DNA of 64,000 nt, taken from an uncultured Bacilli bacterium (GTDB lineage Bacteria; Bacillota_I; Bacilli_A; RF39; UBA660). The position numbers were made by a program, and so were the translations under genes. Below the pieces are notes generated by a model. That model was not told the origin of the DNA and did not search any database. It saw nothing but the letters and a program-made list of their open reading frames with translations. Positions 2,322 to 59,300 of the stretch are shown in pieces (within the stretch, counting starts at the first letter, position 1; the number at the start of each line of letters is the position of its first letter). The stretch spans positions 13,216-77,215 of the forward strand of contig CAKOYV010000001.1 of assembly GCA_934131005.1 (NCBI GenBank). The letters are read 5' to 3'.

Positions 2322-4907
2322 TTATCTAGCATATTTATTTATAACTTCCAAACAACTACCATCATTTTTCTTCTTAACAACTATTTTTTTATCTATTCTT
2401 GAAATAAGTTCATCAACATGAGAAATAATTCCTACTAGCTTATCATTATCAACTAAATCACTAAGCGTATTTATAGCTTGATTAAGAGCATCCTGATCTA
2501 AAGAGCCAAAGCCTTCATCAATAAATAAACAATCAACCTTAATTCCTCCAGCATACATACTTATAACATCAGATAATCCAAGTGCTAGTGCTAAAGAAGC
2601 CGTAAACTTCTCACCTCCTGATAAAGTAGACACTTCTCTTACTCGTCCAGTATAGGCATCATTTACTGAAAAATCTAAACCAACTTTCCCACGAAGTGAC
2701 AAATTATCCATCTTAACTAACTCATACCTACCATCAGTCATTTTAACCAATCTTTTATTAGCTTCTCTTAAAACATTAGTTAAATAATAAGATTGAACAT
2801 AATTCTCAAAAGTCATTCTCATATGCCCTGTAAGAGCTCCGTTAGCCGTATCACTAATTCGCCTCTTCATCATCAATTCTTCGAAAACTTCTTCATACTT
2901 ACAATTATATTCAACTATAGTCCGAATACTATCTTCTAACCTTAAAACAAAAGCACTAGAATCAATATACTTCTTATCAATAGAATTATACTGCTTATCT
3001 ATCTCTAAAGCAATTTCTCTCTCATGACTAACATCAACAACACAGCTATCCCCTACTTCTTCTTCCAACAAAGAAATAGTTGTTGAATAATTCATAACCT
3101 GCTTATCATATTCTTGAACCTTTTTCTGTAATTTTTTCAACTTCAAAGAATCAACAACCTTCTCATCATAGGAAGTAGCATTAGTATCATACTCTAAATA
3201 TAACTTTTCTAATTTTTGATTACCAATATCAATATTTTTTCTAAGATTATCTAACTCTTTTTTATAAACTTCAATAACTTCCAAAAGAGCTTGTTTTTGG
3301 GAAGTCAACTCTATCTTCAAACTAGATAAATCATTATATTCTTCCTCTAATTTATCTCTATCACTAACTATCTTTAATTCCCTATCCAAATATAACTTGC
3401 CATGATCCCTAACATCTTCTAGACTTAAATTAAGTTCATCTATTTCTTCCTTCAAAGTATCAATATGCATAATAATACTATCTTTATTTCTAGCATACTC
3501 TAAAACTTCATTTCTTTTTAAATTAATATCTTCCTTGGTATAACTATCAATAGGCTTAACAGCTAACTTAGGATGCCTAACTGAACCACAAACTAAGCAA
3601 GCTTCTCCTTCTTTTAAATTTTCTGCTAAAAGATATGCTTCATTCAAATAAAATGCCTCTTCCATCAATACCTCTTCTTTAACCGAAGCATCATAACAAG
3701 CTATTACTTCTTTTAATCTCACTGTCTCATCATCAATCATCTTCATCTTTTTCTCATATGTTTTAATCTTATCTAACTTATCCCGAACCAAATTAACCTC
3801 ATCATTTAACTTTTTAATTAACTCCGGATACCTCTCTAATCTCTCAAAAGATTCCTTATTCAAAGAAATTTTCTTCTCTAATTTTTTCAAATCTAACATA
3901 GCATCATCAAGCTTAGCTGTTAAATTCTTAACACTCCCCTCATCCTTTTCTAATAAAGTTCTAACATTTCTAACTTCCGGCACAACATTCAAATTATAAT
4001 CTAAAATTTCTCGGTCTAAACAAACAGATGAATAACCATTCTTTAATTTAGTTAAACATTCTCTTGTATCATGCAATTTAATAATCTTTTCATTCATCTT
4101 CTCAACATTTTCAAGATAAATAGCCATTTCTTTTTTCTTATTATGTAGCCCAGTTCTCTTACTTTCTAACCTACCTAGCGTCTCCTTCTCTAACTCAAGT
4201 CTCTTATTAAGAGTATCTATAACATCATCATTAGTTAAATTCTTGCAATCCAAATCTGTTATTTTTCCCTTTTCCTTATCTAGAAGTAGTTTTATCTGAT
4301 TATATCGCACCTCACACTCACGGCAATCATTTTTTAACCTAAGCATAATATTACTATAAATATCCGTTGCAAATATTTTTCTAAAAATAGAAGTTCTCTC
4401 TTCTGAAGAAGCCATCAAAAACTTTGTAAACTCTCCCTGCGATAACATCGAAATTTGACAAAATTGTTTATAATCTAGACCTAATAGCTCTTCTAAATAA
4501 CTACTAACATCACCAGGTTTAACTAGTTTGCGAGAATCTACTTCCATAAAAGCACTAGCAGGCTCTCTAACAAAACCAACGCCTCTTTTCTTTTTTCTCA
4601 TATATTCAGGTGATCTTCTAACACAATAAAGTTTATTATTATGATAAAATTCTAATTCTACATAAGTTAAAACATTCGCTTTAGCAAAATCACTACGTAG
4701 TGAATTAACTTTCCTACTCTCAAGCGAAGTGCGTCCATATAAAGCAAAACAAATAGCATCAAAAATAGTTGACTTACCACTTCCCGTAGGTCCAGTTATT
4801 AATAATAAACCATTATCAATATCATATTTTGAAAAATCTATTACCGTCTTTTCTCTAAAAGCTAAAAAAGCTTGCATTGTTAACTTTTTAACTCTCACAT
4901 TTATCAT
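2322..4907 (-). CDS. sbcC: DNA repair exonuclease SbcC (Rad50-like ATPase)
   Basis: 861 aa. Walker A GPTGSGKST, a long coiled-coil centre with a CxxC hook (CLVCGS), ABC signature LSGGEKF and Walker B LFIDEGFGSLD. The start overlaps the sbcD stop. Confidence 0.9.
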   Translation of the reverse strand: MINVRVKKLTMQAFLAFREKTVIDFSKYDIDNGLLLITGPTGSGKSTIFDAICFALYGRTSLESRKVNSLRSDFAKANVLTYVELEFYHNNKLYCVRRSPEYMRKKKRGVGFVREPASAFMEVDSRKLVKPGDVSSYLEELLGLDYKQFCQISMLSQGEFTKFLMASSEERTSIFRKIFATDIYSNIMLRLKNDCRECEVRYNQIKLLLDKEKGKITDLDCKNLTNDDVIDTLNKRLELEKETLGRLESKRTGLHNKKKEMAIYLENVEKMNEKIIKLHDTRECLTKLKNGYSSVCLDREILDYNLNVVPEVRNVRTLLEKDEGSVKNLTAKLDDAMLDLKKLEKKISLNKESFERLERYPELIKKLNDEVNLVRDKLDKIKTYEKKMKMIDDETVRLKEVIACYDASVKEEVLMEEAFYLNEAYLLAENLKEGEACLVCGSVRHPKLAVKPIDSYTKEDINLKRNEVLEYARNKDSIIMHIDTLKEEIDELNLSLEDVRDHGKLYLDRELKIVSDRDKLEEEYNDLSSLKIELTSQKQALLEVIEVYKKELDNLRKNIDIGNQKLEKLYLEYDTNATSYDEKVVDSLKLKKLQKKVQEYDKQVMNYSTTISLLEEEVGDSCVVDVSHEREIALEIDKQYNSIDKKYIDSSAFVLRLEDSIRTIVEYNCKYEEVFEELMMKRRISDTANGALTGHMRMTFENYVQSYYLTNVLREANKRLVKMTDGRYELVKMDNLSLRGKVGLDFSVNDAYTGRVREVSTLSGGEKFTASLALALGLSDVISMYAGGIKVDCLFIDEGFGSLDQDALNQAINTLSDLVDNDKLVGIISHVDELISRIDKKIVVKKKNDGSCLEVINKYAR

Positions 4908-7504: not shown

Positions 7505-7625
7505 TTTCTTACCTCCTTAATAATATATTTGATTTAAGACTCGCCCTTAAGGTGGATAATTATCCTTAATACCTCTTCAGTGCGGTTGAGTAAACAACTC
7601 GAGGTCTTTAAAACATAATAAATTC
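7505..7625 (-). ncRNA. Possible L21 (rplU) ribosomal-protein leader
   Basis: A locally GC-richer, self-complementary stretch (cgcccttaaggtgg, cagtgcggttgag, ctcgaggtc) lies directly 5' of rplU in an otherwise AT-rich intergenic region. Firmicute rplU operons are known to carry a structured leader. No covariance model was run. Confidence 0.35.
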
Positions 7626-8432: not shown

Positions 8433-11078
8433 TTATAACCATTCATGATTTTTCTTTATATAAATCTTTTTAATAACTGTAACAATACCAAAGTAAAGTG
8501 CTATTAATATTAATAAATAAAAATAATAACTAAGTGGCAATATCTCAAAATTAAATTCACTAACTCCTGATAAAATTATTGGTGTAATCAAAGTCAAAAC
8601 ACCTGAAAATAATGTCAAACCAACTAAAACTTTGGAGGCATCAAACGAAGTAAATGGATTCTTACTAGTTCGAACATTATAAATAATCATAAGTTCTGTA
8701 ATAAGACAAGTAACAAACCACGCTGTTTGAAAATAACTCTGTTTAGAAACATTATTATATCCCAAAATATAGAAGAAGATAATAAAAGACAAAACATCAA
8801 TAAATGAACTAGTTATCCCCATAACCTTCATAAATTTAGAAATTCCTTTCGTATTCCATTTATGAGGACTTTTTAAAAATTCCATATCAACATTATCATA
8901 AGGAATACCTATTTGTGAAAAATCATAAATAAAATCTTGTATTAGCATTTGAATTGGCAAAAGTGGTAAAAATGGTAAAAAAATACTAGCAATCATAATA
9001 CTAAAAACATCACCAAAATCAGCACTCAAAGCCATTTTCATATATTTAATAATATTACCATAAACCCGTCTTCCCTCAATAACACCATCATAAATAACTT
9101 GCAAATCTTTTTCTAATAAAATTATTGAACTAGCCTCTCTAGCAATATCAGTTGCCGTATTTACAGAAATTCCTACATCAGCCTTCTGCAAAGAAGGAGC
9201 ATCATTAACACCATCACCCATATAACCAACTACATGACCATTTTTTCTAAAAGCCTCAACAACTCTTTCTTTTTGAAGTGGATTAAGTCTTGCAAAAACT
9301 GAAACCTGCTCAATTTTAATAAGTAGCTCATCTGATGACATTTTATCAATATCACTACCAATTAAAACATTATCCCCATCCAAACCTACCAACTCACAAA
9401 TATTACGAGCCGCATACTGATTATCACCAGTTAATATTTTAGTAGAAACTCCTATACTCTTTAATTTCTTCAGCACCTCATCAACACCATTTTTAGGAGG
9501 ATCAAGAAATGCTACAAAACCAATAAAAGTCATATCACACTCAAATGATGAATCAAAACGACTAGCACCTGGATATTCTCTTTTTTCACATAGAGCAATA
9601 ACTTGCATCCCTTCTCCTGCTAATTCACGAGCTCTCGCGATAATAACCTCAACCATCTTATCAGTAATTCTTCTATCAATACCATTCTTTCTAACCTTAG
9701 TACAAATTTTAATAATCTCTTCCAAAGCTCCTTTAGTAATCATTCTATATTCATTATCCCTAGAAACAATGACACTCATCTTTCTTCTATCATAATCAAA
9801 AGGAATTTCATCAACCTTAACATATCCTTGCACTTTTTCATCAATCAAATGCTCATCTGCATAAGAAATAATAGCCCTATCTACCAAATTTTTAACTCCA
9901 GTTGCATAAAAACTATTTAAATAAGCATACTCTAAAATATTATCATTCTCTTCCCCATAAGCATCAATATATTTTTGAACAGTTATACAATCTTCAGTTA
10001 AAGTTCCTGTTTTATCAGTACAAAGAATATCAATAGCCCCTAAATTCTCAATAGCTTCACTCATCTTAACTAAAGTTTTCTTCTTAGCCAAATTTTTACT
10101 TCCCTTTGTCAAATTAACATTAACAATCATTGGCAACATACTAGGAGTAATACCAACGGCAACAGACAACGCAAATAATAAAGCATTATTAAAGTCTCCC
10201 TTAATTAAACCATCTATAACTAAAACTACTAGACAAACAACAACCATATATTTGATCAAAAGATTAGTTATGTTCTTCATTCCAATAGAAAAGCTTGTCT
10301 CTCTGGGCTTAACATCAACTTCCTTACCTATTTTTCCTAAATAAGTATCAAACCCCGTTTTAATAACAATACCCGTTGCACTTCCACTAATAACACTAGC
10401 TCCCATCAAACAAATATCATCTAAATCAAACAAAGTTTTTTTTGCATCATGAGAAACACTAAATTTTTCAACAGGAATACTCTCTCCTGTAAATACAGCC
10501 TGATTAACAAATAAATCATGACTCTCAATAATTCGCACATCAGCAGGAATAACAGAACCAGCATTAAGCTTTACAACATCACCTAAAACAACATCGCAAA
10601 CAGGTATTAATTTATCACTACCATCTCTAATAACCATCGTACTTCCTGTTATCTGTTTCTTTAATTTCTTATTAAACTTATAAGTAGAATATTCTTGAAC
10701 AAATCTAATCGTTGCACTAATACAAGCTATCAATACAATAATAAAAGACCCCAATACATCTTTTAAATAAAAATTAATCCCCGCCAGTACTAATAAAACT
10801 ATAATAAAGTTATCCCGAAAAGCATTAACCATAAAATATAACCATGATTTATTATCTTCTCTAACAACTACATTAGCCCCAGCATCTTCTAACCTTGAAG
10901 CAGCATCCTTACTACTAAGACCACTAAGCGAACCATTACACATATCTATTGTTTTATCAACATCCATTAAAGAAATATCTTGATATTCCTTCAAACTAGA
11001 AGTATCATTATTTATTAAATTTTTATGAGCTTTCTTTATATCAAATATTTGTATCAATTTAACCACCTCTATTATCAT
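8433..11078 (-). CDS. mgtA: Magnesium-importing P-type ATPase MgtA
   Basis: 881 aa. TGESIPVEK, phosphorylation site CTDKTGTLT, hinge GDGVNDAPSL, and the MgtA-type C-terminal LPFLPLLPIQMLIQDFIYDFSQIGIPYDNVDMEFLKSPHKW. Confidence 0.85.
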   Translation of the reverse strand: MIIEVVKLIQIFDIKKAHKNLINNDTSSLKEYQDISLMDVDKTIDMCNGSLSGLSSKDAASRLEDAGANVVVREDNKSWLYFMVNAFRDNFIIVLLVLAGINFYLKDVLGSFIIVLIACISATIRFVQEYSTYKFNKKLKKQITGSTMVIRDGSDKLIPVCDVVLGDVVKLNAGSVIPADVRIIESHDLFVNQAVFTGESIPVEKFSVSHDAKKTLFDLDDICLMGASVISGSATGIVIKTGFDTYLGKIGKEVDVKPRETSFSIGMKNITNLLIKYMVVVCLVVLVIDGLIKGDFNNALLFALSVAVGITPSMLPMIVNVNLTKGSKNLAKKKTLVKMSEAIENLGAIDILCTDKTGTLTEDCITVQKYIDAYGEENDNILEYAYLNSFYATGVKNLVDRAIISYADEHLIDEKVQGYVKVDEIPFDYDRRKMSVIVSRDNEYRMITKGALEEIIKICTKVRKNGIDRRITDKMVEVIIARARELAGEGMQVIALCEKREYPGASRFDSSFECDMTFIGFVAFLDPPKNGVDEVLKKLKSIGVSTKILTGDNQYAARNICELVGLDGDNVLIGSDIDKMSSDELLIKIEQVSVFARLNPLQKERVVEAFRKNGHVVGYMGDGVNDAPSLQKADVGISVNTATDIAREASSIILLEKDLQVIYDGVIEGRRVYGNIIKYMKMALSADFGDVFSIMIASIFLPFLPLLPIQMLIQDFIYDFSQIGIPYDNVDMEFLKSPHKWNTKGISKFMKVMGITSSFIDVLSFIIFFYILGYNNVSKQSYFQTAWFVTCLITELMIIYNVRTSKNPFTSFDASKVLVGLTLFSGVLTLITPIILSGVSEFNFEILPLSYYFYLLILIALYFGIVTVIKKIYIKKNHEWL

Positions 11079-11864
11079 GATAATTATACCACAATAAAGA
11101 TAAAATATTTTATTTTTTTAAGATTTATTTTCTAAAATATCAATCTATGTTTTAACACCAAATTTTTATTTATATCATCCCTTAATGCATCAATACAATA
11201 AATTCTATTTAAAAACTTTAATAATTAAATTTTTTTAAAAATTTAGAAGGAATTAATCAAGCAAAAACAAAAATGGTAAAAAAGTTATTAGAACAAAAAG
11301 TATCTTATGAAATTATTGCTACCTCTGCTCCTATTTCTGTTAAAAATGTAAAAAGGATAGAAAAATCCATGTAAAATGGAGATTAATTCTATCCTTTTCT
11401 AATTTAAATAACTAATTTTTTTAAAGATAAAGTCAAAGAATATCTAGTTGCACCAATAACAACAAACAATTATACCATTAAAAATTATTGCTACATATCA
11501 ATTTTAAATTATTTATTTTTGTTTTTCCTCTTCGCTAAAACTTTATTAAATTCTATTATTTAACACTCACCATTAACATTCTCATACTCTATATCATCTT
11601 GTTCAAATTCATCATCTCTAAATTTATCAATAATAAAATAAGATAAATCAAAACTGTACTTAAGGTCATTAGAACAATTATAATACATATTTTTATCCCT
11701 AGAAACATTCAACACATCAACCATAAATTTATAATCATCCTCAAGTCTAACTTTATTAGCTATCAAATCTCCATTAATATAATTTCATATTAACGTTATA
11801 TCTACATAAAAATAACCTTCCCCTAACTCAAAATTTTTACTTTCGTTATAACTTATCTACTTTC

Positions 11865-27105: not shown

Positions 27106-28345
27106 TTAACCAATATATTTCCAATGAGCATAATAAGTTACATCACTATCTGGCAAAATAGTATTATCATCTATTCTAACTCCATCAATAGGATCTGTAT
27201 ACCACCCTAAAAACTCATAATCATTCCTAGTAGCATTCAATAATTTACCAATCTTACTTCCTTTATTTCCAATCAAAGTAATATTATTTAACCCACCTCT
27301 TTGAAATTGTAAATTTCTAACCTCTAACGTCCTCTCTTCATCTTCACTTCCCCAATCATAAAAGATAAAAGCTGTATATTCACTGCTATAATCATCTGAA
27401 TGATACTTTGAAGTAGCTTTAAAAGTATGCGTATACCTCTTCCATGAAGTACCAACATCATAATAATTAAGACCACCTTGTTCGTTTCCTATAAAAGCAG
27501 TTAGACCAACTGAAGCTTTAGCCTCAAAACTATAACTATACTCACTCCCAATATCTAACTTTTTATAAGATTCAAAATAAAAACCTCTTATAGAATTAAT
27601 TGATGCCTTAAATAATTTTGTTCCATTATAATAATTCGTAGAATAAGTAAGAAGTGAGGCAGCGTTACTAGTACAACAAGGCTTATAATATGACTCATCA
27701 TAATAATCACTCATAACATCATTAAGTAAATAATTATAATCATAAGTAATAGCAATACTATTAGCATCGTTAATCGTAGATGACTGTTCACTAGTCGCAT
27801 AAATATATCCTGAAAAACTTTTATTATCATATTGACCATTAGAAATTTCTGAATCTATCCATAAATAAACTTGATATTCAACTGGATCAACTGTTAAAGG
27901 AACTATAGCTAATAAAGAATCTCCCTTATTATCTATACTCCCTTCACTAAGTAAAGAATCCTTTTGAAATATTTTATATTTCAAAGCTTTAACACTATCT
28001 ATAGGAGCTGTTATATTATCATCAACATGCAAATAAATATTCACATAACTATAAATCTTACAATCTTCACTCTGAGATAAAGTAATCGTACCCTTAGCTC
28101 CTTCTAAATAATTAGTCGTACTACTAAGATTACTAGCATTTATCTCTTCTCCTTGATAATTTATTCCATTACATTCACTACTTCCAGCAACTGAAGTATT
28201 CTTTTTCATCTCTAAATATGCATAAGTTCCACTAGTTACCAAAACTGCATAACAAAATATTCCTACAATTATTAAAGCTACTCTCCTTAGTTTAAGACTT
28301 TTGACCCCCCCCCGAATTAACTTTTAGTTTATAACCGTTTCTCAT
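27106..28345 (-). CDS. Surface protein paralog A: poly-G leader, shared N-domain type 1, CBM-like middle, C-terminal InlB B-repeat. Out of frame as sequenced.
   Basis: RBS gagaggt plus ATG at 28345 opens MRNGYKLKVNSGGG, then 9 G (28305..28313). With 9 G the frame stops after 17 codons. With 8 or 11 G it joins VKSLKLRRVALIIVGIFCYAVLVTSGTYAYLEM... of ORF 27106..28242. The C-terminus YEFLGWYTDPIDGVRIDDNTILPDSDVTYYAHW is a Listeria-Bacteroides (InlB B) repeat. Confidence 0.7.
28305..28313 (-). repeat. Homopolymeric G9 tract (C9 on the plus strand) inside the 5' coding region of paralog A
   Basis: Counted directly: ttgaCCCCCCCCCgaatt. Confidence 0.95.
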
Positions 28346-28437
28346 AAATATACCTCTCATCTTTATTATTTCTACTTATTATTTTATCAAAGAATAATAA
28401 AAAAATAAACAAGAAATATAAACTTTCCCATTTATTG

Positions 28438-29938
28438 TTATTTTATTAATGTTATTCTAGAATAACCATTTCCCTTTTTAGCATAGCCACTAATCGCATC
28501 ATCAGATACATTAGTAGTAGATATAGTTTTAGTTTCAACCTCATCGGACTCTTCACAATTATAACAATACATAGCTTTATTAGTCAAAAGTGAATTTCCT
28601 ATGTAACCGGAACCTCCACCTCCACCGCAATTATTTGTAGAACCTCCGCCTCCATAAAAACCAGCTCCCCCTCCAGAAGAACCTAACACAGTATTTCTAA
28701 CCCCACCTTTCCCAAAAAATGCTTCGTAAATTCCTCCTTGTAACTGAGAACCTCCTTTTCCTACTTGATGCTCATTATGAAAAATATCTTCTGCCTTAAC
28801 AACCATAGTTCCATCATTTCCTAAATTACCACCTCCTGAACCTCCTATTCCATATTCAGGTAAAAGCCCCAAAGAAAGTGATGATTCTGCCCCCCAATAG
28901 TTAGAACCTCCACCTCCTCCTGATACAATTAAAATATTATCTTTATTTTTCTCATAATTTTTCAATTCTCCATTTTCAATAAGTAAATTATAAATAGATG
29001 TTGCTCCACCACCAGCTCCTATATAGGAAGTTGATGTATCACTATTATTTTGACTAGCACCTCCTCCATTATAGCCACCTATTCCATTTACTTTATTATT
29101 ATAGGGATAATCTCCTCCATTATTATCAGTACCTTTTCCTCCTACTGAAATATACAAATTATCTATTCTATTAGCCTTAATAATTCCAACGGAATACCCA
29201 CCATAACCTCCTGCATATTCTTTAGCATCTCCACCCTGTGCCCCCCAAGTTTCTAATTTATAATCACCACTTACTGGTACAATAAACTCTTGCTCTCTAC
29301 CTACATAATCAAAATCAATCGTTTCAATACTAACATTTTCATTATTAGAAATTTCTTCACTACCTATAGTAGATGATTGTTCACTAGTTGCATAAATGTA
29401 TCCTGAAAAACTTTTATTATCATACTGACCACTAGAAATTTCTGAATCTATCCATAAATAAACTTGATAGCTTTTAGGATTACTAGTTAAAGGAACTACT
29501 GCTAATAAACTATCTCCTTTAGTTGTAATAGTTCCATTATATTCAATTTTATCTTCCGTTATTAATTTATATTTCAAAGCTTTAATACTCTCTATAAGTG
29601 CTGTTATACTATCATTAACATGCAAATAAATATTCACATAACTATAAATCTTACAATCCTCACTTTGAGATAAAGTAATCGTACTCTTAGCCCCTTCTAA
29701 ATAATTAGTTGTACTACTAAGATTACTAGCATTTATCTCTTCTCCCTGATAATTTATTCCATTACACTTAGCACTTCCAGCAACAGAAGTATTTTTTTTC
29801 ATCTCTAAATATGCATAAGTTCCACTAGTTACTAACAATGCATAACAAAATATTCCTACAATTATTAAAGATATCCTCTTTAGTTTAAGACTTTTGACCC
29901 CCCCCCGAATTAACTTTTAGTTTATAACCACTATTCAT
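28438..29938 (-). CDS. Surface protein paralog B: poly-G leader, shared N-domain type 1, C-terminal glycine-rich domain. Out of frame as sequenced.
   Basis: RBS aaggtga plus ATG at 29938 opens MNSGYKLKVNSGGG, then G9 (29898..29906), which gives a stop after 17 codons. Loss of one G joins VKSLKLKRISLIIVGIFCYALLVTSGTYAYLEM.... The C-terminal half (WGAQGGDAKEYAGGYGGYSVG...VGGKG...GAGGGATS...SGGGGGS) resembles the bacterial glycine-rich (ALK/LTK GR-like) domain. Confidence 0.7.
29898..29906 (-). repeat. Homopolymeric G9 tract inside the 5' coding region of paralog B
   Basis: Counted directly: ttgaCCCCCCCCCgaatt. Confidence 0.95.
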
Positions 29939-29950
29939 TACTCTCACCTT

Positions 29951-31672
29951 CTATTTTTTTACTATTATATTATCACTACTAACACCAGCAAAACCATTAT
30001 CACCACTAGCTTTATCTAAAATCCAATCCCTATAAGAATCTTCTTTCACATAAACTTTAATACTGGGATTTAAAATTAAAAATTCCCTATAACTAGTAAT
30101 GTTATCAAAATTAATTGTTACTTTAGATAAGTCTAATTCAAAACTAGAATCACTATCAGCTATCCAATAAAACATACAACCAATATCTGTTACTGATGAC
30201 ATATCAAATTTATTTCCTAATTTCAACGTAAATTTCTCACAATTTTTACAGGTCCCTCTAAACATACTTCCCATTCTTATAACTTTACTTGTATCAAACT
30301 TATTTCCTAAGTCCAAAGTAAATGACTTATTACTACTAGCAGTTCCCCAAAACATATTTACCATTACTGTTACATTGGAAGTATCAAATTTATCTCCTAA
30401 ATTTAATGTAAAATCATTATGGGATGTTCCAACAGCTCTAAACATAGAATTCATATTTACAACATTAGAAGTGTCAAATTTATTCCCTAAATCTAAATTT
30501 GTTACGCTAATAGCCTCATAAAACATATATCCCATACTACTAACTTTAGAGGTATCAAACTTATTTCCTAAATTCAAAGTAAAATCAGAAGCTGAATGAG
30601 CTATACTTCTAAACATACTATCCATAGTAGTAACATTAGACGTATCAAATTTTTCTCCCAAATTAAGTGTAAGATTACTACTATTATATCCTAAATTAGA
30701 AAACATAGAAGTCATATCAATTGTCATTGAAGTATTCAAATTACTCATATCAACTGCTTCGACATTTTTTAAACCATCTAAAAATACCATTGCCTTTTTG
30801 ATATATATATCTTCATTACTTCCAACATACAAATCATAATAACCTTCACTACTATTATTATTAAGCCAAGCTACTATGCTATTATCTTGAGCCTCTGATA
30901 CATCCCACTGTACTACCGACTTACTTGTATCTATATAATCAACAAATGAAACATTCTTAATCTTTTCTTTATATTCATCTGCCCTAAAATAATCACTAGT
31001 AGTTTGCCACGTAAAATCTTTCATATAGTTAAATTCTCCAACAGTAGAGGTTGCTCCTGTTCCATTAGAAGAAGAGAAATTAATAATGGCATTATATTTA
31101 CCTGTGTCTGTTTGATTTTCATCTACTTCATCTATCCAAATAACCATATAATATGTCTTTGATGCTCCCTTTCTCAAAGTTAAATCACTATCAAATCTAG
31201 CATTATTTAAACTAGCATAATGACTGTTATAATCACCATAAGTATTTTTATCTTTTATAAGTCTCCACTTTAAGTTAGGCATTTTATCTATATTTCCAAA
31301 TTTTATACTACCATTAACTTTAACTGTTGCTGTCCCTGTATTAGTAACTTTAATTGAATAAACTTGACAGACAGTATTTTTATTACCATCTACGCAACTA
31401 TAATCACTAGAAATAGCATTTGATAATCCCTTTTCAAACTGGGGCACCAAATTCTCATCATTGGAAGGATATTGATCAACAACTTCTAAAGATAAATCAG
31501 CATCTCCAGCCGTTCCAGCTACACTACTATCATTAACAGCAGATAAAGCATAATAAGCATAAGTAATACCAACACCAACTATAAAAATTAATACATAAAT
31601 TAACAAAATTAATACTATTTTTTTATTTTTATTATTACTAAAATTAAATTTTAACTTATTAAGCTTTTTCAT
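29951..31672 (-). CDS. Surface protein paralog C: intact start, shared N-domain type 2, C-terminal BspA/DUF285-type repeats
   Basis: 573 aa with signal anchor IVLILLIYVLIFIVGVGITYAYYALSA. The C-terminal half has about 8 repeats of FTLNLGNKFDTSNVTxMxxMF (about 26-residue surface-protein repeat, leucine-rich type). It has no poly-G tract. Confidence 0.8.
   Translation of the reverse strand: MKKLNKLKFNFSNNKNKKIVLILLIYVLIFIVGVGITYAYYALSAVNDSSVAGTAGDADLSLEVVDQYPSNDENLVPQFEKGLSNAISSDYSCVDGNKNTVCQVYSIKVTNTGTATVKVNGSIKFGNIDKMPNLKWRLIKDKNTYGDYNSHYASLNNARFDSDLTLRKGASKTYYMVIWIDEVDENQTDTGKYNAIINFSSSNGTGATSTVGEFNYMKDFTWQTTSDYFRADEYKEKIKNVSFVDYIDTSKSVVQWDVSEAQDNSIVAWLNNNSSEGYYDLYVGSNEDIYIKKAMVFLDGLKNVEAVDMSNLNTSMTIDMTSMFSNLGYNSSNLTLNLGEKFDTSNVTTMDSMFRSIAHSASDFTLNLGNKFDTSKVSSMGYMFYEAISVTNLDLGNKFDTSNVVNMNSMFRAVGTSHNDFTLNLGDKFDTSNVTVMVNMFWGTASSNKSFTLDLGNKFDTSKVIRMGSMFRGTCKNCEKFTLKLGNKFDMSSVTDIGCMFYWIADSDSSFELDLSKVTINFDNITSYREFLILNPSIKVYVKEDSYRDWILDKASGDNGFAGVSSDNIIVKK
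30880..31368 (-). repeat. About 490-bp block identical to 32736..33224, inside a longer roughly 775-bp similar region shared by paralogs C and D
   Basis: Comparing 30901..31368 with 32757..33224 line by line (constant offset 1856) showed no mismatch. Flanking sequence diverges. Confidence 0.85.
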
Positions 31673-31809
31673 AAAAAATGCCTCCTATTATCTATCTATA
31701 TAATATCAAAAATATTAAAAAAAATAAATAGAAAAATATCAAATAATCTCTCTATTTATTCTCTAATAAATTAAATACTTCTCACATAAATGCTTTATAA
31801 ATTAACCTG

Positions 31810-33535
31810 CTATTTTTTTACTATTACATTATTACTATTTACATTTTTAAAGTCATTAGTTGAATCATTTGCTTTATCTAATATCCAAGCTTTTTCATTA
31901 TCCGATTTTACATAAATCGTTGTTTTAGCAGGTAAAATAAGAAATCCCTTATAATTAGTAAGATTATCAAAACTTAATTTTGATAAATCTAAAACTAACG
32001 TTTTGCCATTATCATAAGCAGCCCAATTAAACATTGATCCAACATTTGGATTATTACTAAAATTAAACTTACTTCCCAAATCTATTGTATATTCATCACA
32101 AAATAGACAAGAATTTTGAAACATTCCACCCATATTTGTCGCACTCTTTGGATTAAATTTATCTCCCAATTTTAAAACAGCTGATTTTTGATTTCTCGCA
32201 TAATTTGAAAACATACCTGCCATATTTTTAACATTTGATGTATCAAATTTATCTCCTAAATTAAGCATAAATTTATTTTTGTTGCCTATATCAGCAAACA
32301 TTGAATCCATATTTGTAACATTAGAAGTATCAAATTTATCTCCTAAATTCAATTCAGAAATAGTCATTTCTGAAAACATTCTCCCCATATCCGTTACATT
32401 AGAAGTATCGAATTTATTTCCCAAATTAAGTGTAAAATTCAAATTAGAACTTCCACTACATCTCCAAAACATTGTACCCATATTCGTTACATTAGAAGTA
32501 TCAAATTTTTCTCCCAAATTAAGTGTAAAATTACTACTATTATATCCTAACTCCATAAACATTCTAAGCATAGTAGTTGTCATTGAAGTATTCAAATTAC
32601 TCATATCAACTGCCTCAGCATTTTTCAAATAAGCCAAAAATACCATTGCCTTTTTGATATATATATCTTCATTACTTCCAACATACAAATCATAATATCC
32701 ATCACTACTATTACTATTAAGCCATGCCACTATACTATTATCTTGAGCCTCTGATACATCCCACTGTACTACCGACTTACTTGTATCTATATAATCAACA
32801 AATGAAACATTCTTAATCTTTTCTTTATATTCATCTGCCCTAAAATAATCACTAGTAGTTTGCCACGTAAAATCTTTCATATAGTTAAATTCTCCAACAG
32901 TAGAGGTTGCTCCTGTTCCATTAGAAGAAGAGAAATTAATAATGGCATTATATTTACCTGTGTCTGTTTGATTTTCATCTACTTCATCTATCCAAATAAC
33001 CATATAATATGTCTTTGATGCTCCCTTTCTCAAAGTTAAATCACTATCAAATCTAGCATTATTTAAACTAGCATAATGACTGTTATAATCACCATAAGTA
33101 TTTTTATCTTTTATAAGTCTCCACTTTAAGTTAGGCATTTTATCTATATTTCCAAATTTTATACTACCATTAACTTTAACTGTTGCTGTCCCTGTATTAG
33201 TAACTTTAATTGAATAAACTTGACAAACAGTGTTCTTATTACCATCTACGCAACTATAATCACTAGAAATGGCTGTTGCTAAGCCTTTTTCTAATTGTGG
33301 AACCAAATTCTCATCATTGGAAGGATACTGATCAACAACTTCTAAAGATAAATCAGCATCTCCTGCTGTACCTGCAATACTATTATTACTAGCCGTTAAA
33401 GCATAATATGCATATGTTCCCCCTATTATCAATAGTGCATAACAAAATATTCCTACAATTATTAAAGCTACTCTCCTTAATTTAATACTTTTGCCCCCCC
33501 CCCCAATTAACCTTTAGTTTATAATTATTTTTCAT
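31810..33535 (-). CDS. Surface protein paralog D: poly-G leader, shared N-domain type 2, BspA/DUF285-type repeats. Out of frame as sequenced.
   Basis: RBS aagaggt plus ATG at 33535 opens MKNNYKLKVNWGGG, then G11 (33494..33504), which gives a stop after 17 codons. G10 or G13 would join KSIKLRRVALIIVGIFCYALLIIGGTYAYYALTA... of ORF 31810..33432. Confidence 0.7.
33494..33504 (-). repeat. Homopolymeric G11 tract inside the 5' coding region of paralog D
   Basis: Counted directly: ttgCCCCCCCCCCCaatt. Confidence 0.95.
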
Positions 33536-35233: not shown

Positions 35234-35626
35234 TTATTTATAAAATTTATATACCCCAACATAATCTATTTGCGATGTACTAGCCTTAAGATTATTACAT
35301 TCACTAGTCGTATATTCCAAACTATTAAAATTACTAATAGTACTACCAGATGCTAAATAAGAGTAACAATAACTATCTAGTCCCACCATAGAAAAAACAT
35401 ATTTACCACTAGCAGGAACTACACTATTAGAAACATCCAAAACAACACTTTGATCCAATTTATCAGTTGTATAATCTGACGCAAATGTTTCCGTCGATTT
35501 ATCAAGCATCCTCTCTCTTGCCGTAAGAGATGCCAAAATACCTAACAAAATCATTAAAAATAAAATAAAAATAGTATAAAGTGTTGACGCAATTGCAAAT
35601 CCACGATTATTTAATTTCATATACAC
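35234..35626 (-). CDS. Pilin-like protein with a degenerate prepilin signal
   Basis: 130 aa. MKLNNRGFAIASTLYTIFILFLMILLGILA resembles a class III signal (G|F), but the Glu at +5 is replaced. Confidence 0.45.
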   Translation of the reverse strand: MYMKLNNRGFAIASTLYTIFILFLMILLGILASLTARERMLDKSTETFASDYTTDKLDQSVVLDVSNSVVPASGKYVFSMVGLDSYCYSYLASGSTISNFNSLEYTTSECNNLKASTSQIDYVGVYKFYK

Positions 35627-36364: not shown

Positions 36365-36856
36365 CTACTCCGAATAACTAGCAGGGCAACTACTCCCACC
36401 ACTAACCTTTTCTACTCTGTATGAAGTCTTTTTACTACTTCCATTAACAACCTTTACAATTCTTATTTCACAATTACCAATATTCACACCATCCATAGGA
36501 TTTCTAAGAATCTTTCTACCATCACTTTCATTAGTCGTACCAGTCGTCAAAAACCCATTACTAACTAACGTTTGTAAATTAGTACTAATAGATTTACCAC
36601 TAATAACTACCCTTTCCGAACTAACATTACCACTCTGACCATCATACTTATAAATATCACTACCACCATACTCAACTTCATTATATAAAGTACTACTAGC
36701 CGTAACAATATTACTAACCAAAATATTATAACTAGCCTTCTTCCCATTATTAATACTAGACAAAACAGATGGCACAGCTATTCCACCCAAAAGAGCTATA
36801 ATAGCAACAACAGCCAGTAATTCTATCAAAGTAAACCCACGATTATTTAGCATCAT
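36365..36856 (-). CDS. Prepilin-type N-terminal cleavage/methylation domain protein
   Basis: 163 aa. MMLNNRGFTLIELLAVVAIIALLGGIAVPS is a canonical class III signal. Confidence 0.8.
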   Translation of the reverse strand: MMLNNRGFTLIELLAVVAIIALLGGIAVPSVLSSINNGKKASYNILVSNIVTASSTLYNEVEYGGSDIYKYDGQSGNVSSERVVISGKSISTNLQTLVSNGFLTTGTTNESDGRKILRNPMDGVNIGNCEIRIVKVVNGSSKKTSYRVEKVSGGSSCPASYSE

Positions 36857-53301: not shown

Positions 53302-56300
53302 TTAATTTGCTGATAATTTATAAGGATCTTCTGCTGTACCACTTCCTGTATATTTAAGGCCTGATTTTAAAGTTACAATAGGACGTAAATAATTTGATCT
53401 ACCTACACTATGAAAAGTACCATTAACTAGTCCCATCAACATATCTACATTAATACTATCTTTAGAGATAATTCTACCACCAACATCCCACATAGGAGGT
53501 ATATCAGTTTTAAAAATATATAATCTAGAAGATACCCAATATGAAACAGAATCACTACTTGCCACTGTTGATGCTTCTAAAGTTTTTAAAGTACTATTTA
53601 CTAAATCATAATCTTTCTTATATAGTGTATCACCACCACCTTGACTCTCTACTGTACAACCATCTTTATCAGTAGAACAAGTCCAAGGAACTCCTCTCTT
53701 ACTAATTTTTGATGTATCGGTTATATATTCTGTTTGACCATTATAACCAAAATATCTTGAGCCTTTCGTATAAGTACTATTTTCATACTGACTTGCTAAT
53801 ACATTCAAATATCCAACAAAATTTTGATATCCCACTTGTCCATTAAAATATATTGATGTACTTGATACATGCTCACTTATAACATCCACTGTTCCATCGC
53901 TATTTAGGCTTATCACTCGCCATAAATTTAATTCTTGCGGATTAATTGTTTGCGTACTACTATATCCTGTTTTAGATGTATCTGTTGTATAAGAGGATTT
54001 AGTTGGTGTCATAGATACATAATCACCCAAATTTAACCAATGAGCATAATAAGTAGATACACTTGAAGTTACCGTTGAAGTCGATTTTATTTCATTACCA
54101 CCACTAGCTTCAGTATACCATCCTAAAAATTTAGCACCTGGCATACTAGGAGATGATAAGGAACCAACACTACTACCAATTTCTTTAGATATTTCACTTG
54201 AAATCTTTATATCACCTATTTTTAAAGTTGTAGTAACACCATCCATAGCACCGCCAAAATTAAAATTGAAATACATAGTACTACCAGTACCAGTAAATTT
54301 TAAAGTCTTAGTAACAACACTAGAAGTTGCACTTGTTGGAATAGTTTCATTAACTACAGAATTAGCTATATTTGTATCATCTTCCACTTTATTTGTAATT
54401 TGATACATAATTCCACTAACACCATCAATACCACTTAATGCTGTATACCCATTTGGATTTTCATAATCAAAAGAAATTGTATATTCTACTCCCTGCACAG
54501 TATCTATTGGTAAATATATATTTTCCCACATTGCATCACCTGACACTGCAATTGTATTCATATCCGAGCTAGAATTATAAGAAATGTTAAATCTACTACT
54601 ATATGTTTTTTGCCAATTATTCATATTATTATTTTTAAAATTATAATCAAGTTTCAATGTTTTAAATCTTGTATCTAATTTATCTATTGCACACTGCACA
54701 TCATCACAATCTACTCCTGTTTTAGAATTATCATAAGAGAAATCTTCAGCTTTTAATCTCTTAGCCTTCGCAGTATATGTAGCATTTGAAGTTAAATTCA
54801 AAGAATTCCCTGCATTTCCAACTAATGTACCACCAGAATTATACCAACCAGCTACTATATAACCACTAGCAGGTGTTATTGTTGGTAATGTAATAGAACA
54901 ACTAGTTGTTCTATAACTACTACCGTTAGTAGTTGAATTAATATTACAAGACAAACTAGTAGATCCTATACTACTAACATTACTATTTTCTTTAGTAAAT
55001 GTCGCTGTATTAGTACCATTATAAATAGCATAATATTTAATTTGACTTGTATTAACTGTTGAAGTTACAGTAGTACTACTAACAGAAGTAGATATTCCTT
55101 TATAAGTACTATTATTAGGCCCTTTACTAGAACTAACAGCATTAGGAATACTAATAGCTCCTTGCCCAACTACACTTCCAGAATAATTAGCAGTCTGTGT
55201 GCCACTAGCACTCACTGTTGCTTGAGCACTACCATTATAATAATAGAAAGTTGCAGCTACTGACCTCGTATATAAACTATATAAACTAGTAGCCGTACTA
55301 GTTGCTGCCGCCGCTACACTATTATAACTCTTATTAGCAGTATTATTACTAGTTGCATATCCCGCAAAAGTCCAAGTAACAGAGTTATTAGTCCAATTCC
55401 CATTACTAAGATTGGAAGTACCTGTACTACTAGTGCTAAGAACCGTATTCATTGCATTATTACTAGTAAAGAAAGCGTTTCGATAAACCGTCCTGCTAGT
55501 ACCACTAGAATATTCCGTTATAGATTTTCTATAAGCAACATAATAATTTTTTGCCCCCGATAAAGTTACTGTAGAATTCGTACTAATATTCATTGTGTTT
55601 ATATTCCCATATCCTACATATACAGAACCATATTGAGAAGTAGTATCTTTAAAAGTAGACAAAGGAACAGTCGCACTACAACTAGTATTATTATTATACA
55701 AATCACAACTAGAACTAACATTCTTAATACCACTATTATAATAATAGAAAGTAGCTGCTACGTTCTTTTTATATATAGCATATAAAGTTATATTACTAGT
55801 TCCCATCTTAAGAGAATCTAATTTACTAGTAGCACTTTTATTAGTATTCCAACCTACTAAAGTATAACCTGTCTTTGGCGTACAAGTTTTAGTTAAATCT
55901 ACACTAGCATTATAATTTACTTTAACACTAGCTATAGTACCACTTCCACCATTAGTAGTACAATCATAATTAACATTATAACTATTAATAGTAGAGGCAA
56001 AATTAGCAGTAATAGTACTAGCAGCATTAACGGTACCACTTGCTGATGACCAACTACTAAAACTAGTTGTATAGCCTGTTATACTTTTAGCTGTTGCTGT
56101 TACACTTCTAGAATCATTTAAGGTAAGTTTATTACTGCTAGTAGTATAAGTTCCACCCTTAGGAACTATATATTTAGATGCCGACACTGTACCATAATTA
56201 GTATTATTGGATTTAATATTCAAGTTATAAAATTCTGCACTAACCTCCGTATTAGAAGCTCCTACAGTTCCTGATTTAGTGTAATTACTAATATTAGTAC

Positions 56301-59300
56301 CATCTACTTTTACACCATATATCTGATATGGAACTCCATAATAATTTTGAGTCCAATAATCTGTAACATAACCCTTATCAACATTATTTACTCTAAACCC
56401 TACTGATATTCCATTACTAGTAGCAGTACTACTATTAATACCAGTACCATCTAAATATAAATTAAGATCTAAATAAACTTTATTCGCTGTCCAATGAGCA
56501 TAATATGTTGCATTAGCATTTGATACTGTCGTTGTACTAGTTACTTTAGTACCTCCAACAGGAGCTGTATACCAACCATCAAAAGTATAACCTGTTCTAG
56601 TTAAAGTCTTCAAACTATCGCCTAAAGTAGAACCGTAAGTTAAACTAGAAGTAGTAACAGGTTGACTTCCTTCTCTTATATCTAACGAATGAACGTATAA
56701 TTCATCTGAAGCATTCCAACTACTACCATTTAAATAAAAGACAAAAGCATAATATGAATTATCATTCGCCACAAAAGTATGAGTTACTCTCTGCCAAGAA
56801 GTAGTAACATTAACATTAACTTGACCTCCTTGTTCATCACCTATTTTCAAAGTTTTATTACTACTAGCTTTAACATAAACACTCCAAGTATAAGTCTTAC
56901 CAGCAGTAAGTTTACTGTTTGGAGCATAATAAACTCCACCACTAGTACCAGCATTCATTGTAAATTTAACAACATTACCACTCCTAGCAGCATCCTCATC
57001 TACATTACTCTTAGCACTAGGACAAGTTGCCGCACAACTATATTTAGCTGGATAAAATGAATCATTCCATAAATTATCACTATAATAATTTTGATCGTAA
57101 GTAATATTATATTTATTAACTGTCCACATAGCATACAAAACTAACTTACCATTACTAATACCATATTGTCCATCAATATATGCCCATTTGCCACTCCAAC
57201 CAGTCCAATTATATCCATCACTAGTACCATCTGATTTAGTTGTCCACCCTGCAAATGTATAACCTGTCCTAGTAAAAGTATTAGTTTTAATAGTAGTATT
57301 ATCATCATAATTTACCGTATGAGAAGACATGGTACCACTACCATCATTAGCATTATAACTTATAGTATAACTATTAGCCTTCCAAATAGCATATAAATTT
57401 ACATTTCCTTGAGTTGCCAAATTTTTAACACTAGCTCCCCCAACATAAGTATTTTCACTAGCATTTAATTTATAAAATTTTACATTTTTAATTGTTGCAG
57501 AACAACCAGGCATTGCTCTAAATAAAACATATTTATTTACATTACCATCTCCACTAGATCCTAATGTAAAAGTTACTGTATAATGCGTGTAATTACTAGA
57601 TAAAGGAATCGAATTAAAACCGTCAGCATTAGTACCATTACCACCAGTAGATGAAGTCCAACTTGCAACTTTCAAATAATTACTAGCCCCATAAAAATAA
57701 TTATATAAATTGCCACTTCCCTTTACATCAACTTCAAGCCTATATTTTTCGCCTGAACTAAATGGTGCATTTATCGTATACTGTTTAAAATCTGAATATC
57801 CTGACTCTCCCGAAGCTTTTGAACCACTAATTTCAGACGTATCATTTAAAAGTGCCTTCGTCGAACTAGAAGTTGACCATCCTACAAAAGCATAACCTCT
57901 TTTAGTAAAAGCATTATTTTTAATAGTAGCTGTACTATCATATTTTACAGTTTGAGAATCCATCGTACCAGTTCCACCATTAGCATTATAAATTATTGTA
58001 TAATCATTAGCACTACATCTAGCATATAAAGTTACATTACCTTGTACAGCAGTTGGGGTATAACTAGCACCTGATGCATAACTAGTTCCACTACCATCAC
58101 TCTTTGTATTCCAATTACACGTATAACCAGTCTTAGAAACAGTTGGTAAATTAAATGCAACAGGAGTCCAATTAGCTGTCAAAGTAACAGTAGACCCATT
58201 AGTTGGATTCAAATTCTTAAAATATTTACTTTTAACTAAAGTTGATCCATTACTCCAACTATTTGTAATACTAGAAGTACTATCTCCATATTTAGCCGTA
58301 CTTGTATTAATATTACTAGCCGTCCATCCATTAAATGTCTGAGCCTTTGAAGTAGCTAAACCAATAGTTGCTCCAGTACCATTAGCATCCCCTGTAGCTT
58401 TAATTGTCTTAGTAGGATTATCTATAGTAATATTACTATCATAATTACCACTACTAGGTGTATTAGTTCCTTTAGTACCATTATTCAAAGTATAATTAAT
58501 ATTATATGTATTAACATTCCAATTACCAGTTAAAGTTCCATTACCAGCCCCAAACCTATACACATAACCACCATAATTTTCATTACTTATATAAGTATTA
58601 GCTGTTACATCATAAACTGATAAATTCTTCATATCCATATCAACTTCACCAGTAGTTCCTGGAGCAATACCAAAATAAATTTCTACACAAGGATTAATAT
58701 TATAACTATTACCACTTAACGTAAGTGTAGTCCCAGTAAAAGTTCTTTCCATAGAATATTCTACCCAACCATCAGTTACCCCTACATTTTTAAATGTCCA
58801 TCCTGAAGAACCCCAATCATTATTAAATGCCGAATGTCTTACATGAGCATAAGCAAAACCAGAACTCTTCCTAACTCTCATCATATATGTAATTCTATAT
58901 TTATGACCTGAAGTATAAGCATAATTATTAAAACGAATAAATGGATAAAAATTACTACTCCCTGAATTATTAAGATTAAAAGCATAATTTGTATAACTAG
59001 TTCCATCCGTATCTGTCTTAACAGTTCTAGTTATTTCAGTACTCTTAGAAATACTAACTGCACTAGCATTTCCTCTCATAAGTGTTCCACTACCACTAAG
59101 ATTCCATTTATTAAACGTATAACCCGTCCTAGTAGCTGGTAATAATCCATAAGTCGTATTATAATTTTGTGAAACATTAACTGTACTAGTAGAATTATTA
59201 TAAGTACCACCATTAGGATTAATAGTTAAATTATATTTATTAATACTCCACTTAGCATATAAAGTACTAGCTTTATTAAAATATTTATTAGTAAAATTAC

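Follow-up and report, generated by a model that had tools for sequence, protein, structure and literature searches.

Probable poly-G-switched contingency genes for modular surface proteins in an uncultured lineage of gut Bacilli

Most work on contingency genes driven by repeats has dealt with pathogens and mycoplasmas, and the phase variation known from gut commensals is mainly that of the invertible promoters of Bacteroides. In the surface adhesin gene pilC of Neisseria, a poly-G tract lies within the part that encodes the signal peptide, and a change of one nucleotide switches its translation. Among the mycoplasmas, G8/G9, G9 and G10 tracts that differ between two strains were found at the 5' ends of lipoprotein genes (Nouvel et al., PMC2824730), and modular contingency loci adjoining PARCEL open reading frames (ORFs) were described in M. 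capricolum (Röske et al., PMC2996958). The present study deals with a cluster of four tandem paralogous genes, referred to here as A, B, C and D, on a stretch of 64,000 nucleotides (nt) of an uncultured Bacilli bacterium (GenBank assembly GCA_934131005.1, contig CAKOYV010000001.1, positions 13,216 to 77,215), the whole of which is called the window below. Three of these genes, A, B and D, carry a run of G residues (Gn, with n as its length) shortly after the start codon, and very probably they are contingency genes that are switched by slipped-strand mispairing at this run. The cluster is flanked by a gene for a UvdE-type UV-damage endonuclease on one side and a cysteine desulfurase gene on the other, and is composed as follows (positions in the window).

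27106-33535, minus strand: paralog cluster of four tandem genes in the order D, C, B, A
27106..28345, minus strand: paralog A, ATG at 28345; leader ORF with its stop at 28292 as sequenced, body open to the stop at 27106
28305-28313, minus strand: poly-G tract of A, G9 (C9 on the plus strand), out of frame; G8 or G11 would be in frame
28438..29938, minus strand: paralog B, ATG at 29938; 5' cassette and N-domain of the A type, C-terminal glycine-rich domain of the ALK/LTK type
29898-29906, minus strand: poly-G tract of B, G9 (C9 on the plus strand), out of frame
29951..31672, minus strand: paralog C, intact, 573 amino acids, DUF285, no tract
31810..33535, minus strand: paralog D, ATG at 33535; 5' cassette, followed by an N-domain and DUF285 repeats in common with C
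33494-33504, minus strand: poly-G tract of D, G11 (C11 on the plus strand), out of frame; G10 would be in frame and give 574 amino acids

An earlier sequence-only reading of the window had noticed that three of the four paralogs carry a poly-G tract 11 codons after the start and that all three are out of frame, which agrees in coordinates, lengths and codon with what we find. The tracts of A, B and D begin in codon 11 of related leaders, each of which is preceded by a Shine-Dalgarno-like GAGG or GGTGA 6-8 nt upstream of its ATG. As sequenced, each gene is one base out of frame, and the leaders MRNGYKLKVNSGGGQKS, MNSGYKLKVNSGGGQKS and MKNNYKLKVNWGGGQKY run into a stop after 17 codons each, again as had been described together with the ribosome-binding sites and start codons. 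When one G is lost or two are gained, each leader runs on into a basic stretch, (V)KS(L/I)KL(R/K)R, and then into a hydrophobic helix (IIVGIFCYA), beyond which the frames of A, B and D stay open for 398, 485 and 560 further codons, respectively; the restored ORFs comprise 412, 499 and 574 amino acids. This repair had been predicted as well, and for A and D proteins of this kind are present in the public databases. The remaining two frames terminate 3-6 codons past the run. In the window, which has a G+C (GC) content of 28.2%, the three tracts are the sole runs of G or C with a length of 7 or more, the next longest being C6, which occurs twice, and the tracts are therefore not a product of chance. 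With G9, G9 and G11 within the 5' coding region, they exceed the length of about 7-8 or more from which homopolymers in a 5' coding region or promoter are regarded as prone to slippage.

The contigs compared with the window had been fetched either for their in-frame proteins or for the flanking housekeeping genes, and all of them were assembled from human-gut metagenomes of the Hadza and other cohorts. Contig L003 aligns with the window over 21.7 kb with three single-nucleotide polymorphisms (SNPs) and a single indel, its D tract being G10 as opposed to G11, and L041 aligns over 6.9 kb without any SNP and with a single indel, G9 as opposed to G11, again in the D tract. A near-identical D haplotype is consequently found with all three lengths (window G11, L003 G10, L041 G9). 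Taken together, L003, L031, L033 and L034 cover about 63.5 kb at an identity of at least 99.75%, with 3, 39, 18 and 3 SNPs, respectively, and the four real indels in these alignments are all located in poly-G tracts, so that tract length is essentially the sole thing that varies between the window and its close strains. In the 11 distinct contigs in which the D tract was read, it is G9 in three, G10 (in frame) in five and G11 in three. The B tract is G10 in three of the five loci read (L002, L031 and L033) and G9 in the other two, including L003, and the A tract is G9 in seven contigs (including L002, L003, L031, L033, L034 and L035) and G8, which is in frame, in one (L001). Orthologous tracts of different length, which the sequence-only reading had named as a check on its proposal, thus occur for all three genes, those of D in contigs that are nearly SNP-free against the window; in-frame and out-of-frame alleles are found among very close strains, and the length of the repeat toggles between a full-length ORF and early termination.

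Database searches yielded in-frame proteins with exactly the predicted fused N-termini for A and D. The A orthologues of 412 amino acids are P0001 (98% identical), P0236, P0242, P0243 and P0246, and the D products are P0085 (574 amino acids; called in frame from L003, where the tract is G10), P0248 and P0249; a LamG-type paralog (P0007) likewise has the fused in-frame N-terminus. For wider counts, the members of protein clusters at 90% identity were sorted by the length of the called product, with 14-15 members listed per cluster. Among the matches listed, the contigs with A comprise six full-length and about 79 truncated calls, and those with D comprise 17 full-length calls, 15 called from a TTG at G9, and nine truncated calls (G11). 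For B there are no full-length and about 43 truncated calls; every database product of B is a truncated call. Furthermore, pairs of in-frame alleles exist that are one glycine (3 nt) apart, namely SGGV/SGGGV (P0279/P0284), SGGGK/SGGGGK (P0004/P0287) and P0289/P0298, which is what the gain or loss of 3 nt in a slipping tract should give.

The calls from TTG are a peculiarity of D. Here the tract stands in the context AATTG-Gn (33494-33506), and the TTG, which overlaps its beginning, shares the reading frame of the body when the tract is G9; gene callers then report a protein of 564/565 amino acids starting with MGGGKSIKL (15 contigs among the matches listed). Upstream of this TTG there is only a weak AAGGT, 3 nt away.

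The mechanism proposed is that the poly-G run gains or loses a G during replication. Each such change shifts the reading frame, because the run is located in codons 11-14, in the cytoplasmic N-region of the signal or anchor sequence. With an in-frame tract (G8 or G11 in A and B, G10 or G13 in D), translation would proceed from the ATG leader through the basic stretch and the membrane helix into the ectodomain, and in the other two frames it would stop 3-6 codons past the run, so that no exported protein would be made. A change of 3 nt would have no effect beyond a glycine gained or lost, which this region tolerates. The ectodomains presumably displayed in this way are a List_Bact_rpt module, a glycine-rich domain and DUF285/BspA-like repeats at this locus, and LamG at a second one. 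Since A, B and D would switch independently, one clone could yield cells with different combinations of adhesin-like ectodomains; three genes would take part here and at least five or six per genome, with the tract-less C, which is presumably always expressed, staying on. In the case of D, the TTG at G9, if it serves as a start, could give a leaderless but anchored protein, which would turn a two-state into a three-state switch. Slipped-strand phase variation, as the sequence-only reading had proposed, is supported by the observed length polymorphism and remains the probable explanation after the following alternatives have been weighed; the switching would be stochastic and reversible within a lineage.

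The out-of-frame genes could be decaying pseudogenes, in which ordinary inactivating frameshifts have hit redundant paralogs that are being lost. Most copies are indeed out of frame, B is never found in frame among the matches listed, and the intact paralog C could cover the function. However, the sole lesion is always in the tract, the tract is kept across species, and in-frame alleles recur in near-identical haplotypes. In addition, the frame 3' of the tract is open for at least 388 codons in every complete out-of-frame case (388-560 codons), which is very unlikely to arise by chance in such an AT-rich genome, and the pairwise ratio of nonsynonymous to synonymous substitution rates (dN/dS) between out-of-frame bodies and their orthologues is 0.10-0.48. 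Judged by these values, the out-of-frame copies are not dead and their bodies are under purifying selection, and decay is an extremely unlikely explanation. Alternatively, the G9 alleles could be expressed by recoding, through slippage of the RNA polymerase or a +1 shift of the ribosome on GGG-GGG-GGT, with G9 as the functional state that is maintained and DNA length changes that are incidental. The strong predominance of G9 in A (about 79 of 85 contigs) and in B (most of 43), among the matches listed, would fit such a model, as would the run of G codons, on which tRNA-Gly could re-pair in the +1 frame as in known frameshift mechanisms. On the other hand, a programmed frameshift or transcriptional slippage would call for a conserved slippery site of fixed length with the out-of-frame state as the only one, and three frames are seen here: the length is not fixed (B is G10 in three of the five loci read, and D ranges over G9, G10 and G11), alleles of A and D that are directly in frame exist, and no stimulatory element was seen, i.e., no stop or rare codon in the A site, no downstream structure and no Rfam match. 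Recoding as the main explanation is therefore very unlikely, although a low level of leaky expression could coexist with switching at the DNA level.

A third explanation is an error of sequencing or assembly, according to which the real tracts would all be in frame and of constant length, and both the frameshifts and the differences in length would be artefacts of homopolymer calling. It touches on the points that weigh against slipped-strand switching: all comparisons were made between consensus assemblies, in which homopolymers are the least reliable sites; the sole in-frame allele of A that was read as DNA (L001) comes from a contig with a coverage of only 5.6x; and L002 may stem from a long-read assembly, judged only by its record name ('contig_'). 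Moreover, A, B and D in the window are all off by the same +1, and every dataset has G9 as its most frequent call for A and B. The strong bias of A and B towards the off state, with B never in frame, is not what neutral random switching predicts and needs counter-selection, a mutational bias or another cause; most simply, expression could be selected against in the gut. Against an error, however, all three frames occur in independent short-read (Illumina) assemblies from several studies and assemblers, with a coverage of 12-29x (SPAdes NODE contigs, MEGAHIT k141 contigs and METAG scaffolds), which makes a uniform +1 miscall unlikely. The lengths of D (five G10, three G11 and three G9) do not gather at a single value with occasional outliers, there are alleles 3 nt apart, and there is no other indel in about 63 kb of the same contigs. 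An error would also leave unexplained why a G9-G11 run is conserved across species at this codon in a genome with about 28% GC. We therefore regard miscalling as very unlikely and slipped-strand mispairing as the reading that best accounts for the three tracts.

The combination of KVN(S/W)-Gn and the following membrane helix can be considered a cassette that is found well beyond this locus. Its DNA motif, AARGTTAATT(C)-Gn, which encodes KVN(S/W)-Gly(n), is kept in proteins that are only about 50% identical as well as at other loci, and the ectodomains that follow the cassette, at several loci and in other species too, are of at least four kinds. In the same genus, a second locus lies between a gene with a Germane domain and scpA (contigs L004, L028 and L029). 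Its tracts are G11 (in frame) and G9 in L004 and three times G9 in L028, and L029 has G10 where L028 has G9, the called product downstream being identical. In another species, L005 contains four tandem genes with glycine-rich domains and tracts of G10, G9, G8 (in frame) and G9, and L007 has an in-frame G10. The GenBank metagenome-assembled genome (MAG) CAMBIR01 ('uncultured Firmicutes bacterium') has five cassette genes on five contigs, one of them in frame. In total, all 46 runs of G or C with a length of at least 7 in related DNA (about 360 kb, redundant) fall within the cassette, 33 of 33 in about 271 kb (redundant) of the same genus and 13 of 13 in about 89 kb of other species, and 11 of the 46 are in frame. 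As in the window, the repeat is over-represented relative to base composition and confined to particular genes. Without selection for it, a G9-G11 run would not be retained at one codon over such divergence in genomes with 26-31% GC. Sporulation genes adjoin loci related to the cluster.

In a scan of a genome collection, six of eight stretches were real cassette genes (five in CAMBIR01; L009 is counted among them), and L008, L011 and L013 look like chance matches. A scan of JGI metagenomes with the cassette pattern returned mostly low-quality, homopolymer-rich contigs and chance matches, with only L026 plausibly related. The pattern scan also met two contigs of an unrelated organism with about 38% GC, L025 (2285-2292) and L027 (5204-5213), in which a gene starting with MCKELTNVNKMGG has G8 and G10, respectively, and forms an ORF for a membrane protein of 366 amino acids at G10 only. 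Near this gene there is a ...RKVNSGG site with G8 in one of the two contigs and G9 in the other. By these differences, the contigs probably contain another phase-variable locus that was found by chance.

Regarding the proteins, the sequence-only reading had assigned an InlB B-repeat, a glycine-rich and a BspA/DUF285 module to the C-termini, all of which were recovered with Pfam. Paralog A consists of the membrane helix, an N-domain in common with B and a C-terminal module identified as Flg_new/List_Bact_rpt, the Listeria-Bacteroides repeat (TIGR02543 in NCBIfam), which is InlB B-repeat-like. The C-terminus of B matches ALK_LTK_GRD (E = 2e-32), and C and D match DUF285 (E = 1e-22 to 1e-24). Since membership of the DUF285/PARCEL family is defined by tandem repeats of about 26 residues that match PF03382 or TIGR02167 above the family cut-off, C and D belong to it with 78-84 bits for PF03382 (cut-off 25) and 43-50 bits for TIGR02167 (cut-off 30). 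It had also been stated that the paralogs share N-domains, which holds pairwise but not across all four: A and B have one N-domain, with about 87% nucleotide identity over about 620 bp, and C and D have a different one that, together with DUF285, shows about 89% nucleotide identity over 1.2 kb. Common to A, B and D is only the nearly identical 5' cassette of ribosome-binding site, leader, tract and membrane helix. Paralog C, whose intactness and lack of a tract had been correctly noted, has the leader MKKLNKLKFNFSNNKNKK, a degenerate, tract-less homologue of the cassette. An AlphaFold model of the in-frame D product (mean predicted local distance difference test score, pLDDT, 84.7) shows a helix at residues 16-47, a beta-rich part at about 60-215 and, in the DUF285 part, repeats of short strands. 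A Foldseek search of this model against the PDB gave no specific homologue, only weak matches with a low template-modelling (TM) score to integrins, transglutaminase 2, Spo0M and archaeal filament proteins.

The cassette could be portable and, in a clade of uncultured human-gut Bacilli that form spores, recombination could have placed it in front of unrelated ectodomains at several loci. Together with gene conversion between paralogs, which would account for every SNP between near-clonal strains, it would generate combinatorial surface variation; we put this forward tentatively. Among the matches listed, A and B are rarely in frame (6 of about 85 and 0 of 43) compared with about 40% of D, and this off bias would then reflect selection in the host by antibodies or phages.

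The SNPs that distinguish L003, L031, L033 and L034 from the window are all located within the paralog cluster, and the 9-15 kb of flanking sequence has none. Of 17 SNPs in the N-domain of B in L031, 11 correspond to the allele of paralog A in the window, and C and D change together at eight parallel positions (30969-31223 and 32825-33079). This pattern looks like gene conversion between paralogs, which a chimeric metagenome assembly of the repeats could mimic. The strain of L002, which is about 97% identical (10001-11698 compared with 29951-33535 of the window), lacks a paralog C of its own; in its only DUF285 gene (P0087), the 5' cassette and N-domain of D are followed by the C-terminus of C, as if the two genes had recombined where they are nearly identical, with loss of the intervening DNA. 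The orthologues of B (P0008-P0018, corresponding to 28438-29838 of the window) are 75-84% identical to paralog A over the common N-domain, and their glycine-rich C-terminal domains differ greatly between strains in sequence and length (437-497 amino acids), which suggests diversifying selection or cassette exchange in this module. Many contigs of the species end within the cluster (L033, L034, L035 and L043). Repeated 5' cassettes and common N-domains break assemblies, so that MAGs are likely to contain the locus too rarely or in pieces.

Elsewhere in the window, an ORF of 2275 amino acids on the minus strand (53302-60129) contains at least six Listeria-Bacteroides (Flg_new) repeats of the type found at the C-terminus of paralog A and no poly-G tract; it is a large surface protein. 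A prepilin-type protein (36365-36856, minus strand; GFxxxE, N_methyl) and a second small pilin-like ORF (35234-35626, minus strand) are encoded 2-3 kb upstream of the cluster, and many distant DUF285 relatives have a prepilin N-terminus where the cassette would be. Two distant DUF285 relatives, P0176 and P0208, contain PF12389, which we take to be the camelysin family. The G-T-Y-A-Y motif after the helix bears a resemblance to SipW-dependent signal peptides, but the NCBIfam model for SipW-cognate signal peptides (TasA/camelysin type) matched neither the full proteins nor, even at E <= 10, their N-terminal fragments. The ORFs at 242-2212 and 2322-4907, considered as mutL/mutS under the idea of a missing mismatch repair, are an arylsulfotransferase and SbcC according to Pfam, with SbcD adjoining. 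An Rfam search of the whole window gave a single match, an L21 leader at 7527-7597, and none near the tracts. Between 27000 and 33700, the promoter scan showed no excess of promoter-like matches (47, compared with 43.7 in shuffled sequence), and the terminator scan found only two terminator-like sites compared with 0.6 expected, both within coding sequence.

The finding is of interest in that an uncultured and apparently spore-forming lineage of the human gut (Hadza and other cohorts) appears to bear a family of poly-G-switched modular surface proteins. In terms of annotation, gene callers give most of these genes as N-terminally truncated, with the export signal missing, which affects dozens of entries. 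The length of the tracts could be used as a marker of within-host selection in metagenomic time series, and the on/off ratios of individual paralogs would point to the surface modules that are tolerated in the gut. Literature searches found no paper that describes this poly-G cassette system. The mechanism itself is textbook knowledge; the cluster provides a clean, population-supported example of it in an uncultured gut lineage.

Compared with known systems, the position of the tract is reminiscent of Neisseria pilC, in which in-frame length variants are tolerated as well, the region being absent from the mature protein as here. However, pilC belongs to a Gram-negative pathogen, encodes an unrelated protein and is a single gene or pair, as opposed to a family of at least five cassettes. 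In Campylobacter, the tracts are mostly found in genes of glycan-modification enzymes and at varied positions, and they are not part of a conserved leader cassette on secreted modular proteins. Nevertheless, the poly-G contingency genes of Campylobacter jejuni are similar in that rare hypermutable G8-G11 runs in an AT-rich genome are confined to genes for surface structures (e.g., Cj1295, PMC3068675). The nearest precedent is found in the DUF285/PARCEL lipoprotein genes of Mycoplasma agalactiae with poly-G tracts (MAG1330 and MAG3260) and the modular contingency loci of M. capricolum/M. mycoides (PMC2996958, PMC2824730). Both there and here, some of the products contain DUF285/PARCEL repeats, a gene family makes use of a reusable 5' switch module, and strain differences of the G8/G9 type result in frameshifts. 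In contrast to the mycoplasma lipoproteins, the proteins described here have no obvious lipobox and, by eye, are not lipoproteins, and their hosts, which use genetic code 11, are gut Bacilli that appear to have a cell wall and to form spores. Finally, KVN(S/W)-Gn with its membrane helix is distinct in sequence from the mycoplasma modules and also drives List_Bact_rpt, glycine-rich and LamG ectodomains.

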